Shown: positions 1,765 to 64,000 of the stretch, in pieces
Numbering within the stretch: position 1 is the stretch's first letter
Layout of the letters: every line of letters starts with the position of its first letter
Position numbers and translations under genes: made by a program
Notes under the pieces: model-generated
The model's database searches: none
Seen by the model: only the letters and a program-made list of their open reading frames with translations
Told to the model about the DNA's origin: nothing
Assembly: GCA_030324005.1 (NCBI GenBank)
Contig: JARDVH010000084.1
Coordinates: forward strand, 68,165,519 to 68,229,518
Source of the DNA: Negaprion brevirostris
Lineage: Eukaryota
DNA length: 64,000 bases
Reading direction: 5' to 3'

Positions 1765-2010
<246 letters not shown>

Positions 2011-12250: not shown

Positions 12251-12493
12251 AATAATAATTGTACTTTTCAAAAGTACAATTCGTTAGACAGCAACAGTTG
12301 GAGAACTTCAAGAAGCATGATGCATATTTTAATGGTAAAGGTAAAAGCTTTTATTTTGAACATTAAGTTTGTGCCTAGATCTCAGCATTGTCAGGAGTAC
12401 AATGTTGAATAATATGCCAAGGTGGATAAAGGCAATGCAATATAAGCATCTTACACAATGTTGCTTGACATACCTTACCAGAGTAGTGCTTAC

Positions 12494-12696
12494 CGTTCTG
12501 TTTAGCTGTCTCATAGTCCTCCTTACACACCAGTCGGCTATCCTCCATCAGATAGAATTCATCCCCTGTAGCCAGCTGCCGGTTACACATGATGCAGGAA
12601 AAGCAGTGAAGGTGGTAGACAAAGTCCTGAGCTTTCCTCACCACCTGGGTTGGGGGGATACCCTGCTGGCAGGCTGCACATTTTGTCCCAAAGCGT
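12494..12696 (-). CDS. LHX4: LHX4 coding exon (second LIM domain; equivalent of human exon 3), 203 nt
   Basis: Polypyrimidine tract + gcag|A CGC TTT GGG ACA AAA TGT...CAG AAC G|gtaagc; [84 protein letters not shown] and EAGAKR are LHX4-type rather than LHX3-type residues. Confidence 0.95.
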
Positions 12697-29259: not shown

Positions 29260-30205
29260 GAATGAGACATAAGGAGATTTCTTAAGGGCAAATCATGCTA
29301 AATGAATTTGATTAAGTTTTCAATGAACCAATAGTTTTTTTTTAAGTTTATTTGTTAGTGCCACAAGTAGGCTTACATTAACACTGCAATAAAGTTACTG
29401 TGAAAGTGCCCTGGAGAGGGATTAAGGATGTTGATGAGCTTAATTCTGTGATTCAATGAGTCTATGAATGAACAAGCCACTGATTACTAAAAGGAAAACA
29501 GAGGGTAAGGGATAATGATATTTACTTCATCCAGTAGAAAATGGAAAGTGGTCTTTGACAGGGATTGATACTGTCCGTCATTTATGTAAATCATTGGACT
29601 CAGGAATCAGAAATGTAAAATGAAGATGGGTGACATCAAATTGGGGCTGCAGTTAATATTGAGGAAAGACTGTGACAAAATACAAGATGTTATCAGTAAA
29701 CATGCAGAATATTTTAATGGCAAATGACTTTCATTGAAGGTTCAAAATATTCCATTTTGATTGGAGGAATATGGAGCCTAGTCACTCCTTGGAAAATAAG
29801 AATCTGGATGGAACAAAGGCGCAAAGTGATTAGAGAGTATAAATTTGCAAATCATTAAAAGGTAGCAATGCAGATTAAGGAGGCTTTAAAACGCAAACAC
29901 AGCACTGAGGTTCGCATCAAGAAGAATGGAGGCTTATGTTAAATCTATATAGAAACTTGCTTTGATCTCACTCACTGAGTTCAGTGCATAACTGTGGTCT
30001 CCCTTTTTTTTAAAAAAAGATATACAAACACTGAACAATGCACAACAAATGTTTACAAGGATGACACTACAACTGAACAGGTCCAACTAACAGCCTGGGA
30101 CAGGTTTTACTAGCAAAGAGATAAGATTAGATGAAGTGAGGAGGGAACGAGGGGTCATGAGGACCATAAATTCCTGTTGGGCTGAATGGCCTGTTTGCGT
30201 GCTGT
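29260..30205 (+). mobile_element. Decayed CR1 RT fragments with an inserted SINE/LINE tail (29335-29412)
   Basis: KGKSC.NLI-like DNA at 29285, GATGACA.CAAA.TTGGGG-like motif, GGGCTGAATGGCCTG tail at ~30180. Confidence 0.65.
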
Positions 30206-30225
30206 GTAATATTATTTAATGGCAC

Positions 30226-30716
30226 TTGTGTGAGATTGATTTGAATGAGGGAATTTTGTGTTGAGCGTACTTCACCCCGGCCAAAACCGCTAAATGATAA
30301 AATGAAGTGTGGCCTCTGGAGATGGAAAGGCCGATGCTGGCAGTACTTACAACTCATACCTATCCATACTTAGAACCTGAACTTTGCACGAGGAATTGCT
30401 GCACCTTCCTTAATCGGAGATGTTAGGGTATCCGTTCCAGTCGGATGAATTTGCCATAGCCATCCTCATGCACTGTGCGGAATGGTGTCTCTCTCTCTCT
30501 ATCACCCGGGATACAAATCCACGGGCTACCCTCACCTAGTTTAGCCTGCGAGCCGACGCAGTTTGCCGGGGTGTGGCCGTCGCCGTGCACAAGCGACTAC
30601 TTGGAGCCATAGGTGAGAGTTGTGTAAGCAGAGAGGACCAAAGATTGCGGACCATCCAAGGGATGCGGCATGTCCCCAGTCAGAGGCACTACCTCTTCTG
30701 CTTAACACTACACCCC
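30226..30716 (-). mobile_element. ~491-bp non-autonomous RTE-related retroelement with 5' ribozyme
   Basis: 5' part resembles RTE-clade 5' UTRs (CAACTCTCACCT.TGGCTCC...GGCCACACCCCGG...GGCTAAAC..GGTGAGGGTA); flanked by ATGGCAC at 30219-30225 and 30717-30723; no long ORF; CpG-rich. Confidence 0.65.
30529..30716 (-). ncRNA. HDV-like (double-pseudoknot) self-cleaving ribozyme, predicted
   Basis: P1 GGGGTGT/ACACCCC, P2 CTCTCACCTA/TAGGTGAGGG, P3 GGC/GCC, P1.1 CC/GG, P4 CTGCG/CGCAG, J4/2 GCTAAAC, all in HDV order. Confidence 0.8.
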
Positions 30717-31104
30717 ATGGCACAATATATTAATGTACGACAGGGACACAAGCATTCGTAATGTCGAAAATGAATGTACCGACCAAAATCAAGCATTCCT
30801 GACATTAACATACTGTAGACATTCCAAATGCTCACTAGCATTGGATATTTATGTGCTGTAGGGTAAATTGACTATCCTGCAAAATAATATATTAATGAGA
30901 CGTATGGATGCAAAATATTGCTGTGCTCTGCTGTTTTCAAGCACTTCATAATACAGTATATCAAAGGATTATCAGGTGTCCAATTGTACAATACAGTGAT
31001 GCACCTAGGGAAAGTAGTATTCCACAACACACAGGATGCTAATGCATTATAGGGTTTTCGGGAATGTATATTAACATTTGGAGACCTGTAAGTGCGCCCT
31101 GAAT

Positions 31105-32280: not shown

Positions 32281-32619
32281 GACATTAGTTGGTAACACAT
32301 TTAGAAGTTCATCTTGGTGCACCAAGACAGGTTACTAATGTAATGCAGTCACAAGTATTTCATGGTATAGTATGTTAACATGTTCAAAGGAAACTGAGCA
32401 CTCCATGGAACAGCATCTTAATGTGTCATAGGAACATTCAGCATTCCATCAGACAGTATGTTAATGTACTATCGGTATTGCAAGCACATTTTGACACTGT
32501 ATATAAATATGGTAGTATAGGGACATTGAACAATCCATGACATAGGGTTCATATACTACAGGGTCATTGAATCCTCCATGCCAGAGTATATTAACACACT
32601 TGTAACAAGCTGGCACAGC

Positions 32620-33870
32620 TCTAGAGCCTGAGGACATGCAGACAAGATTTTAGCACAAATCTTAGCTCTTCTTCTATTTCCTTTGCCTCAGCACCCAGAT
32701 NNNNNNNNNNNNNNNNNNNNNNNNNNNNNNNNNNNNNNNNNNNNNNNNNNNNNNNNNNNNNNNNNNNNNNNNNNNNNNNNNNNNNNNNNNNNNNNNNNNN
32801 NNNNNNNNNNNNNNNNNNNNNNNNNNNNNNNNNNNNNNNNNNNNNNNNNNNNNNNNNNNNNNNNNNNNNNNNNNNNNNNNNNNNNNNNNNNNNNNNNNNN
32901 NNNNNNNNNNNNNNNNNNNNNNNNNNNNNNNNNNNNNNNNNNNNNNNNNNNNNNNNNNNNNNNNNNNNNNNNNNNNNNNNNNNNNNNNNNNNNNNNNNNN
33001 NNNNNNNNNNNNNNNNNNNNNNNNNNNNNNNNNNNNNNNNNNNNNNNNNNNNNNNNNNNNNNNNNNNNNNNNNNNNNNNNNNNNNNNNNNNNNNNNNNNN
33101 NNNNNNNNNNNNNNNNNNNNNNNNNNNNNNNNNNNCCCCTAAATCTCCAAACACAGCTCCTAACACTGAATAATCTACCTCTAGCTCCTTTCCAAGGTCT
33201 ATAAAGAGAATTGCACTGATAGACTCATCATTTCAGCCTGTTCTTGTCCCAGGCTTTTCTTCTTGCTGCTCTATATTTTCTCCCCATGTCAAGTCTCTTG
33301 TGACCATCATCTATAACTCTTGCAATGCCTTCTGTCAGTTCAGCAGTTTCATGGCCCCAACAGTCTTATTTTCACCATAGACGTCCAATCCCTCTACACC
33401 TCCATCCCTCACCAGGATCATCTGTTCTTCCATTTCCTTCTTGAATGAAGATGCATAAAATACATTAACATCACCCTCCTCCATCTGGTTGACTCCCATG
33501 GCTACATAGACTTCCTATCCTCTGACGCAGCTTCCTTTAAGGAATCCATTTAATTCTCCTGGTTTCTGTATCTCTGTTCCATGTGTTTTGTCAATGCTAA
33601 CATTTACACCACTGCCTCTAAAATATCTTCTTTTTATCTCAACTTGAAATAAAAGGTTGAGAGGGTCTTTGACAACGTTGATCCCATTTCTCACACTTCT
33701 GCTCTCAAGCACAATAGAGGTAACACCTGCCTTTTCATCTACTTCCTTTCCACTGTCCAAGGTGACTCCATCCCTGTGACACAGCAATTTGCCTGTACAT
33801 CTTTCAACGTAGTATACTAAATGTGCTGTTCACAATGCAACGTCTTTTACAATGGGGATATCAGACATGT
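32620..33870 (+). mobile_element. Penelope-like element, RT + GIY-YIG remnants (with gap)
   Basis: 33370-33418 = FTIDVQSLYTSIPHQD (PLE RT motif); 33785-33870 = QFACTSFNVVY*MCCSQCNVFYNGD (decayed VY..C..C..YIGE). Confidence 0.85.
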
Positions 33871-35346
33871 TCGATGACATGATATAATGATGTATAATAG
33901 GACATAGAGCATTCTATATCATTGATATAGGGATATAAAACACTCCATAAAACAGTATATTAATGTAGTATAGATATATGGAGTATTCCATAAAAGATAT
34001 ACTAATGTACTATAGGGACATGAGTGCTTCTTTTCACATTATGTTAATGCATTATAGTTGTACAACTCCTCTGCACCCCTCCCCCCGACCCTTCGAAGCC
34101 ACACACCATCCTGTCTTAGAGCTGTATTATCATTCCTTCACTGTTGCTGAGTCAAAATCCTGGCACTCCCTCTCCAACAGCACTGTGGATGCACCAACAT
34201 CACATGGACCACAACACTGTAGGTGAACTGACATCACATGGGCCACAGCAATTCAAGAAGATAGTTCACCACTAGCTTCTCAAGGGCAATGCAGGATGGG
34301 CAACAAATGCTGGCCTCACCAGCAATGCCCATATCCCATGAATTAAATTTTTAAAATTGAATAATCCATGACATGGTATGTTAATGTGGTGTCATCACTT
34401 CAACCATTCCATGGCACAGCACATTCATGTACTTGTAAGTTGGTAGATGCAACCCAAGACCTAGTGACCAATTAAATACACAAACAAGATCTCAAAATAA
34501 GTAAGGCTCATTGACCCATGTTGTGTCTTTACTGACAGGGCAGAATAGGTTGTAGTTTTCAGTCTATACTTATTAATCTCAGTTTCTACATCTCCAAATT
34601 CCATTCCAGGGCAGATCTATTACCATGCCTTTTATTACTGCAGTCTATAAACATATATAATTAATGACAATTAAAGACAATAATTTCTTAAAGCCAAATC
34701 ACTTTTATGTAATATATTATGAATGGATGATTTCCTCAATACAGCATTCTCAATATCCTATGGCTTACATATCATCCCTCTGTCACTCTGTTACAATACC
34801 TTAGGGACATTAAGTGACACAGTGTATTAATGTATACACTAGAAAATCACGCATTCCATGACAGAGTACATTAATGTAGTATTAGACCATTGTGTGTTCA
34901 AGGACACAGTACATTAGTGCACTGTAGAGCCACTGAGCACTTCATGACACAGTATATTAATGTACTGTAAGAGTATCAAGCATCCATGACTAAGTGCATT
35001 AATGTAAACGGGGTCATCAAGTATTCTGTGACACAATGTGCTAACATTCTATATGGCCAGCAAGAACTCTATGATATAGTATATTAATATAAGATGTGGA
35101 TAATTCAAAGCCACAGTATGTTGATGAACTTTAGAGATGTGAAGAACCCTATCATGCTGAATATTATTGCTTTATAGGAACATTGAGTGTTACTTGGCAC
35201 CATATATTACAGTACGAAAGGAAAATTGAGGACTCTATGCCACAGTACAACAGGCACACTAATTGCCCCAAGAAACAGTATATTCATACTATATTGACAT
35301 TAAGTAATTCTTGACAAACTATATTAATTGACCATAGTGATATTGA

Positions 35347-35822
35347 TTTCATGGTACAATATATACAGACACAGTACATTTATGTACCCTATGGAAGCTC
35401 ATGGTACAACATATACAACCATGNNNNNNNNNNNNNNNNNNNNNNNNNNNNNNNNNNNNNNNNNNNNNNNNNNNNNNNNNNNNNNNNNNNNNNNNNNNNN
35501 NNNNNNNNNNNNNNNNNNNNNNNATGTACCCTATGGAAGCTCATGGTACAACATATACAACCATGACACAGTATATTTATGTACCCTGTGGAAGCTCATG
35601 GTACAACACATACAACCATGACACGGTACATTTATGTACCCTATGGAAGCTCATGGTACAACATATACAACCATGACACAGTATATTTATGTACCCTGTG
35701 GAAGCTCATGGTACAACACATACAACCATGACACGGTACATTTATGTACCCTATGGAAGCTCATGGTACAACATATACAACCATGACACAGTATATTTAT
35801 GTACCCTGTGGAAGCTCATGAC
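35347..35822 (+). repeat. 55-bp tandem repeat organised as a 110-bp higher-order dimer
   Basis: Units start at 35524, 35579, 35634, 35689, 35744, 35799; the variants CCTATGG/CCTGTGG, CATAT/CACAT and CAGTAT/CGGTAC alternate. Confidence 0.95.
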
Positions 35823-62222: not shown

Positions 62223-64000
62223 TTATAGTGCGATAGTGACCAAGCAACCAAAAAGAGAACTTAGATGAAACTTCTTTATTCACTGTGTGGTGGAAATATG
62301 GAAGTTTCTACAGGAACTGATTAAGGTGAATAGCACTGACAGAAGAGGCAAAATAAGTACCTGAACGCTTGGGGAATTGAAGGTTATGACAGAGTTAGAA
62401 TAGAATGAAAGAGGGCTAGAGAGGAATATAAACACCCGGCATGGACAGGTTGGGNNNNNNNNNNNNNNNNNCAATCGTTAAAGCTCTTTCCCCCCAGCTT
62501 TTACAACCTGAGGTGCCGCCTTTAATATTTATGTGAATCTATACCCCACTTCCCCAAATCCTGCAGCTCCTTCCCAGCACTGAACCTACTGTTGAAGAAT
62601 GTGATGGTTACCGTTCACTTTTTAACCTAAATGTATCACATCGCACTCACTGTCATTGAATTCCAACTGCAACTCCTGAGGCTAGTCACCTGCCGCTACC
62701 TTGTGCGATCTTCCTCGATTTTCTAAAATCAAAGTACTTCCTATTTTGGTCTCGGCTACAAATCCAGGCTGAAATCTTATCATTGCCATGCACGGTCAAC
62801 AGAAGTGACCCCAGAACTGAACCATGGTGGACATCACGGTTTTCCCTTTATATATATGATAATTTCCCTCTCAATTTCTGATTAGAATTCATCCCGGGGA
62901 CTATTTGAACACGCTACTGTTTTCCGGTACACATTCACGCTCAATATTCAGCCGGAAACAGAATTCCTAAGGACTGAATATAATTCCCTCTCTCAGCTCC
63001 TCCGGTATTTTTGGTGTGTGTCCCGTCAGACCCTAGCTCATTTGTCTTGCCTCCTTATCTGAAAAGAAATCATTTAATCCATTCTAATACGGCTAATCTT
63101 CCATTGAATCTAACCCAGTTTGTCACTGAAGTGGCGATTTTAAAAACATACAAGAATAGGCTTTTAACACCGAATCCAGTGGAAGGGCTGCCCCGGAGAA
63201 GAATGCCAAATTCAAGGGAAGGATGGTTCCACTCTAGAGATAAGGAAGGGAGCTCAGGAGCCGTAGAAAAATCGCAGAGCTCCACAAGGGTTCCGCCAAG
63301 TGCACCTTGATTCGCCATGGCGTTTGCTCAGTTTCCAGACTGCTGAAATTCAGATGTTTCCTGCACTGTGGTACCCCAGAGCAACAACAATCAGTGCCAT
63401 CACAGACTTGTAAAATAAATCCACTTCGAATGAGGAAATTGGGTGTGTGAGGGGGGTCCAGTTAACTCGATTACTACCAGTCCCTGCGTGGAATATACAC
63501 ATATACACACACACAAATGTCCACCCGCATATCTGTGAATAACTAATTTCTGTAACATTTGAAACAGCCATTTTCTGTTTCAGTAACTGTTTTGCAGTGG
63601 AAATGAACATTGTAGAAATTTTTAAAAAGAGGCAAACTCGCCACAGGTAAACACAGAGCGAATCATTCACTGACTCCTGAACTTTGCTATAAACATTATT
63701 CTTTCTGAGCCATTCCAGCCTTTTGGATAAGGCGTCAGATCAAACCCAAGATGGGACGCGATGCCTTATCTTGTCAGCTTGGACCTTGCTTGTCTCTCTT
63801 GTGAAGACCATGAACTGGATTCAATTCCAATGTGCTTTTTGGAGCAAGCAAGGAGATGGATTAAATGCTTTCCCAGTCCATTCCAAGCATTCGCTTCGTA
63901 ACTTTCATTTTTATGGAGTGCCCGCAATATGAGAAAGTCTCGCACATCAGAGCGATCAAGTGAATGGGTGATCCCGCTAACCAATCTGATTATTAATTGT

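Follow-up and report, generated by a model that had tools for sequence, protein, structure and literature searches.

A solitary LINE 5′ UTR fragment with a predicted HDV-like ribozyme in an intron of an Lhx4-like gene

Ribozyme-headed LINE UTRs and short derivatives of them are already known. Bipartite non-autonomous RTE derivatives (RTESINE1/2, RTE-N2_Lch, Bov-A, WALLSI3) are a described kind (PMC5786205). For L1, internal priming that yields tailless copies flanked by target-site duplications (TSDs) has been described; all tailless copies in that account depend on L1 machinery, and they come from therians and a lizard, the anole (PMC5322556). The few ribozymes conserved in vertebrate introns are thought to be domesticated mobile elements (PMC7761336), and CPEB3-type regulation of a host mRNA by an intronic ribozyme has been proposed in mammals (PMC10274809). 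The source of these conserved intronic ribozymes is no longer traceable.

Here we describe an element within a 64,000-nucleotide window (the whole stretch of DNA analysed) from a probable cartilaginous fish. As a mobile element, the window copy is ordinary; its interest lies in its setting, that of an intact predicted ribozyme in sense orientation within a developmental gene. The reading we favour, with modest confidence and as a model, is that of a one-off tailless retrocopy, a tolerated passenger, with a predicted ribozyme that would still cleave Lhx4 pre-mRNA. The Lhx4 intron context and the invariance across species are new observations, missed in the first-pass annotation of this DNA, and our searches of the open-access literature returned no report of this locus.

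Table 1. Coordinates of features in and near the window (position 1 is the first letter of the window).
Feature	Position	Strand	Remarks
LINE 5′ UTR fragment, solitary, likely RTE-clade	30226..30716	-	491 bp, no ORF, no 3′ tail
Predicted HDV-like ribozyme	30531..30716	-	first 186 nt of element, hand-read fold; predicted cut 5′ of G30716
P1	30716-30710 with 30574-30568	-	GGGGUGU/ACACCCC
P2	30617-30609 with 30540-30531	-	one bulge
P3	30608-30606 with 30577-30575	-	GGC/GCC
P1.1	30604-30603 with 30567-30566	-	CC/GG
P4	30561-30557 with 30550-30546	-	in predicted ribozyme
J1/2 insert		-	~100 nt; folds as long stem
J4/2 GCUAA	putative catalytic C at 30544	-	C followed by AA
Stem-loop inserted in L3	30579..30597	-	after U-C-C-x-x-G-Y-A loop motif
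Hairpin directly 3′ of ribozyme	30504..30526	-	MFE fold; inside invariant 30479-30725
3′ part of UTR fragment	30226..30530	-	flank-rate evolution; 8/306 sites differ in X3
(TC)n microsatellite	30487..30500	+	length varies among samples
ATGGCAC, candidate TSD copy, element 3′ end	30219..30225	+	may overlap element sequence
ATGGCAC, candidate TSD copy, element 5′ end	30717..30723	+	also start of satellite unit
Degenerate ~43-bp satellite flank	30717..30900	+	aligns to array at 32330-32640
High-copy repeat end	30130..30218	+	depth >1000 over 30176-30222, all four runs
Homeodomain exon, Lhx4-like gene	1846..1983	-	Pfam Homeodomain, E 5.8e-9
LIM2 exon, Lhx4-like gene	12487..12694	-	Pfam LIM; best PDB match Lhx4, E 2e-43
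LIM1 exon, Lhx4-like gene	window-equivalent 70311-70481	-	6 kb beyond window end

A predicted ribozyme and its relatives

The first 186 nt of the element can be drawn as an HDV-like double pseudoknot (P1, P1.1, P2, P3 and P4) in which all 31 of 31 pairs are Watson-Crick. U30605, G30600 and C30544 with its AA are all present, as is the CC/GG of P1.1; we assign the first three as putative active-site positions by HDV numbering.

A whole-element search of the 2.69-Gb genome returned the element itself and at least 39 partial matches at 69-79% identity, restricted to positions 1-225 (40 of the 230 candidates were scored). Its sole sibling, L005 (G000:C163, start 39163737, minus strand), is about 25% diverged, with decayed CpGs and a broken P1: 41 of 165 non-CpG and 13 of 18 CpG sites differ from the window copy, and 11 of the 31 pairs are broken. 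Given the contrast between these two copies, either the subfamily had two widely separated periods of activity or the window copy is conserved. The remaining loci, at least 28, constitute an abundant sister family, B, which is about 70% identical to the window element over the head. Among 23 family-B copies, four keep every pair unbroken and one has 31 Watson-Crick pairs, and for this reason we rejected intactness alone as a sign of selection. Divergence within family B is 5.5% in the head and 6.7% in the remainder, among copies selected by head similarity.

These relatives allow the fold to be assessed by covariation. Over 25 copies, 94.8% of 768 cells are paired and 8 of the 31 pairs change on both sides, compared with 30-45% pairing in slid controls, which are lenient because the copies are related and the structure was drawn from the same sequences. 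The alignment comprises 25 of 30 loci; L009 and L019 were left out for heads that are not full, and L011, L017 and L028 because the motif-based cut fell off register or because of an insertion. Loop L3 opens with the HDV-like U-C-C-A-A-G-U-A and then carries an extra 19-nt stem-loop, and so departs from the canonical short L3 (7-8 nt) of HDV-like ribozymes. Three of the five pairs of this hairpin change on both sides between the window copy and family B, and a 4-5 bp version also occurs in two metagenome contigs, L057 and L058. The covarying L3 hairpin suggests a class of HDV-like folds overlooked by standard models. Our searches of the open-access literature returned no description of the hairpin or of any shark HDV-like ribozyme.

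Rfam 15 gave no relevant match to the ribozyme, either at the gathering threshold or at E up to 10. ViennaRNA, which cannot draw pseudoknots, assigned a probability of 1.0 to P2 and 0 to P1, the 5′ strand of P1 being captured by a hairpin with the flank; we disregarded that hairpin because the flank bases involved differ in sample X3. A shorter ribozyme fold gave z -2.3. At the level of sequence the ribozyme head is real, and self-cleavage is predicted.

The first 20 nt of family B and of L057/L058 contain the 5′ strand of P1 twice in tandem, so that cleavage could occur in either of two registers spaced by 10 nt; the subfamily of the window element has a degenerate second copy.

Invariance of the predicted ribozyme within the Lhx4 intron

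The exons of the Lhx4-like gene lie on the minus strand, so the ribozyme is on the sense strand of the 58-kb intron that separates the LIM1 and LIM2 exons, 39.6 kb past the donor and 18.0 kb before the LIM2 acceptor. The LIM1-LIM2 junction is in frame, with GT/AG splice sites, and reads K-R-F-G; an 86% paralogue of the gene lies on another scaffold. The LIM1 exon is surrounded by CpG-rich sequence (o/e 0.5-0.9) that stretches from roughly 63 kb to 71 kb (63001-64000 and beyond, L035), and just 3′ of the homeodomain exon is a minisatellite (1029-1231; 24-bp unit, 8.5 copies, 94% match) with one open minus-strand frame. At 32330-32640, 35000-35420 and 35524-35820 the intron also holds scattered degenerate 43-bp satellite arrays, together with a young tandem repeat (55/110 bp) composed of related sequence.

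Sample X3 (organism B) provides the one full comparison, at about 3% divergence: all of its 35 variable places are listed, and none falls in 30479-30725. The ribozyme core shows 0 differences in 185 sites against 35 in 1084 outside it, a count that omits two repeat-flooded bins (Fisher p 0.004; 0.015 without the fast right flank; 0.03 for the post hoc longest gap), and against 8 in 306 in the element's own 3′ part (p 0.022). Between 5.5 and 6.8 core differences would be expected; the CpG-aware expectation of 6.8 gives a probability of 0.001 for observing none, or 0.004-0.006 with overdispersion. Windows of 185 nt with zero differences number 63 of 1184 across 1.37 kb, all of them over the ribozyme. 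Taking three samples together, none of the 40 listed variable places lies in the core. For X2, 19 of 29 places are listed, none in the core, with the other ten unplaced; for X11, 13 of 22 are listed, none in the core, and at most one could be there. In family-B copies the head is not much slower than the rest, and with this comparison the absence of differences from the core argues against plain neutrality of the ribozyme.

Two further observations emerged from these comparisons. The satellite flank adjoining the invariant block (30726-30832) is fast-changing, with 12 differences in 107 bp in X3. Sample X2 shares its organism label with X1 and yet differs at 29 of 1132 sites (29898-31029), nearly as many as organism B, which reflects either a deep within-species split or a label problem.

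Selection on the ribozyme, as for CPEB3, is possible, and by analogy we entertain a tentative second reading in which the ribozyme is kept because its predicted cutting would race splicing to the LIM2 exon and tune Lhx4 mRNA output. The counts above point in this direction, as do the sense orientation within a developmental transcription-factor gene, the decay of the only sibling and the precedent of the CPEB3 ribozyme (PMC10274809, PMC6765202). Several considerations temper it. The full listing comes from a single comparison at only 3% divergence, and 14 of its 35 differences fall on the window's own lineage, which was in effect pre-selected for intactness; ten of the X2 places and nine of the X11 places are unlisted. 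The loops are as invariant as the stems, so the invariance does not single out RNA structure, and there are no compensatory changes among the orthologues. We also judge the prior odds to be low for any one young insertion.

Origin of the fragment

The first-pass annotation had described a complete, non-coding, ribozyme-headed element, and much of its account of the 5′ end held up. The boundary is G30716, the first base of P1, and L005, the only other copy of the subfamily, begins at the equivalent base next to a different flank. A tRNA A/B-box head is lacking, as had been said (no tRNA gene, and no B-box motif in the 3.3-kb locus), and so is a long ORF, the longest ATG ORF touching the element being 76 aa. 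The satellite flank proposed beyond 30717, with its ~43-bp period, is present in degenerate form, and its score of 75.5 exceeds the highest of 300 shuffles (55.5); TRF gave no call on 30717-30900.

The element is the 5′ UTR of a LINE, not a complete SINE-like unit. It is colinear with family B and with the metagenome element in L057 as far as a CAAGT motif, and in some family-B copies (L012) the head runs through further UTR into an APE endonuclease ORF (Exo_endo_phos; Atlas name 'craniofacial development protein 2-like', CFDP2-like). The 3′ part of the element aligns to the family-B copy L003 with a score of 73 (shuffle maximum 45); taken alone, it scores 53.5 against L057 (shuffle maximum 56.5) and 51.5 against L021 (maximum 55), neither above shuffles. 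The source LINE likely belongs to the RTE clade, a label that rests on the CFDP2-like endonuclease and on tail motifs of putative RTE type, not on an RT tree.

The claim of completeness fails at the 3′ end. The element's end motif aligns with L057, L021 and L025, all of which continue into a tail; their terminal hairpin and GA(T/A)GGACGAAC(AAC/ATC)n tail are missing from the window element, which ends about 70-125 nt short of the tail position in complete relatives and is not complete because the tail needed by a partner is missing. The exact tail motif does not occur in the 3 kb downstream of the element, nor does a match at up to 2 mismatches. What had been read as a short CA/CAA-like end lies within the UTR; CACACGA stands there in the three other samples (T>C at 30227), and the apparent CAA end is a CpG change private to the window's lineage. 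The GGCCT/AGGCC hairpin noted near it (30311-30332) survives only in part: the other three samples all lack the fifth pair (A>G at 30328), whose presence here is likewise a change private to the window's lineage. The 3′ end of L005 is unreadable, with opposite-orientation LINE sequence beyond, so L005 does not settle the 3′ end of the subfamily.

The metagenome scan found two contigs with three matches. The matches, at L057:2718-3335 and at L058:1793-2056 and 1-125, are ribozyme-headed elements, whole or partial, that are nearly identical to one another; the one in L057 is a complete element of ~610 nt on the same plan. Their neighbours are ORFs without introns that encode UCH, OTU and insulinase domains. 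Such contigs might come from a large DNA virus or from a compact eukaryote genome, or might carry retrogenes, and so could mark a possible route of horizontal transfer.

The window element was likely inserted once, as a tailless retrocopy. In the preferred reading, a rare LINE lineage would have given rise to a read-through transcript whose own HDV-like ribozyme trimmed its 5′ end, consistent with the boundary at G1 of P1. Reverse transcription would then have started about 490 nt into the UTR, where a short match to the nicked target served to prime it; such internal priming would produce a 7-bp duplication and a copy without a tail, as is found. A tailless copy would not have spread, in keeping with the copy number, and presence in all three other samples points to fixation before the sampled taxa split. 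By its CpG content the insertion would be fairly young, similar in age to those family-B copies that are best preserved, leaving a fold that has not yet decayed. CpG retention, which the first-pass annotation had singled out, is indeed high (o/e 0.65, against 0.25 for the window) and yet not special, since 17 sister-family copies span 0.33-0.70. The neutral 3′ part of the element, at 0.65, falls inside that range; the insertion accordingly looks fairly young and intactness needs no selection, and we rejected CpG retention as a sign of selection. Against a tailless retrocopy, neither of the two tailless family-B ends has a TSD.

The direct repeat bears on how the copy arose. ATGGCAC is present on both sides of the element as first annotated, and the probability of an exact 7-mer by chance is ~0.005 within 30 nt of the homology end (0.15 within 1 kb). 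The first letters of the left copy continue the element's own CAAGT motif, an overlap that fits internal priming yet weakens the independence of the repeat, and the satellite carries internal ATG(G)YAC-like sub-repeats, with similar 6-7-mers twice per unit. An empty orthologous site was found in none of the three other samples, all of which carry the element; X2 and X3 contigs span it with both junctions, whereas X11 comprises two pieces with the 5′ junction unbridged. We regard the proposed TSD as probable. The same overlap and sub-repeats, and the two of two tailless family-B ends without TSDs, speak for a different origin (compatible with other readings of function) in which a full-length LINE was inserted and later lost its body and tail by deletion, the 7-bp repeat being chance or partly element sequence. 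We consider this unlikely, given an exact 7-mer abutting G1 at the homology end and given that blastn with the family-B endonuclease region (the first ~900 nt of the ORF region) found nothing in the window.

Invariance could also reflect constraint on the DNA itself, for instance an intronic Lhx4 enhancer derived from a retroposon head, to which cleavage would be irrelevant. SINE-derived enhancers are known (PMC2000970), and the invariant 250 bp (30479-30725) extend somewhat beyond both ribozyme ends, loops included; the block nevertheless closely matches the folded domain plus one hairpin, and we find this reading quite improbable.

Apart from its decayed relative L005, the element is solitary. 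Its 3′ 295 nt match only themselves in the assembly, and exact patterns, as well as three patterns allowing 3 mismatches, returned the window copy only, plus L005 for 5′ motifs. Contig depth over the element equals that of the single-copy flank in four runs except in one 47-nt bin, which corresponds to L005's best-kept stretch, and four independent contig sets showed no extra depth at 90% likeness over the element; X1, possibly the assembly's own source, was left out of the support count. The high-copy repeat that ends just to the left is, by resemblance, presumably a CR1/L2-type LINE 3′ tail. An autonomous partner LINE with the element's exact head was not found. The first-pass proposal on origin is therefore retained for the ribozyme-defined 5′ end, the lack of a Pol III head and a LINE 5′ UTR that is likely RTE, but not for a SINE-like family, since only two copies were found in the assembly. 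That an RTE partner mobilised the element in trans, as one member of a SINE-like, ribozyme-headed family not yet described, is very improbable: its ribozyme-defined 5′ end, candidate TSD and lack of an ORF would fit, and copies can hide where the assembly breaks off at repeats (as it does, at a gap or a contig end, for 20 of 26 family-B loci), but the pattern searches, the unmatched 3′ 295 nt, the single-copy depth and the missing tail all weigh against it.

Family B itself has produced short forms. Of its 26 loci checked for 3′ ends, six are readable; four of these are tailed, three of the four with 9-11-bp TSDs, and the other two are the tailless ends without TSDs. L014, L021, L025 and L027 (all G000) derive from the abundant sister LINE and measure 564-749 bp. 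All carry the ribozyme head and a tail, three are flanked by TSDs of 9-11 bp, and the UTR-to-tail junction is different in each; they look like repeated independent internal deletions. That these short forms are one uniform SINE was rejected, an exact junction pattern matching the source copy only.

Comparison with known systems

The predicted ribozyme shares with HDV-like ribozymes of LINE heads (PMC6765202, PMC3774820) a five-helix double pseudoknot, a ~7-bp P1 that sets the 5′ end, a long J1/2 insert, a GC(U)AA J4/2 with C at the catalytic position, and its place in a promoter-less LINE head. Unlike them, it has a covarying stem-loop inserted in L3 and no attached ORF. Like the bipartite RTE derivatives (PMC5786205) and R2 SIDEs (PMC6765202), the element is short and non-coding and starts with a LINE 5′ UTR; those elements keep the LINE 3′ tail and form families, whereas the window copy is tailless and solitary, and the short forms of family B match this kind better than it does. 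It resembles the tailless retropseudogenes of PMC5322556 in being 5′-complete and 3′-truncated, with a short direct repeat overlapping the template. Those are described as L1-dependent, whereas the window copy has a LINE UTR as its template and comes from a probable cartilaginous fish.

The closest parallels in setting are the mammalian CPEB3 ribozyme (PMC10274809) and the amniote intronic hammerheads (PMC6765202, PMC7761336), which are likewise single-copy, situated in sense orientation within introns of regulatory genes, and reduced in substitution; with CPEB3 the window ribozyme also shares a single-copy HDV-like fold. Its sequence, gene and lineage differ from all of these, its conservation extends across only ~3% divergence, and its retroposon origin is still readable. 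A decayed sibling, an abundant sister family and the element's own neutral 3′ part act as built-in controls, making domestication directly testable. Were the ribozyme co-opted, a retroposon ribozyme with an unusual L3 hairpin would, in competition with splicing, set the dose of Lhx4, a transcription factor of the pituitary and of motor neurons, and the locus would represent an independent CPEB3-like case in a (probable) shark lineage, caught early, with its LINE origin still legible.
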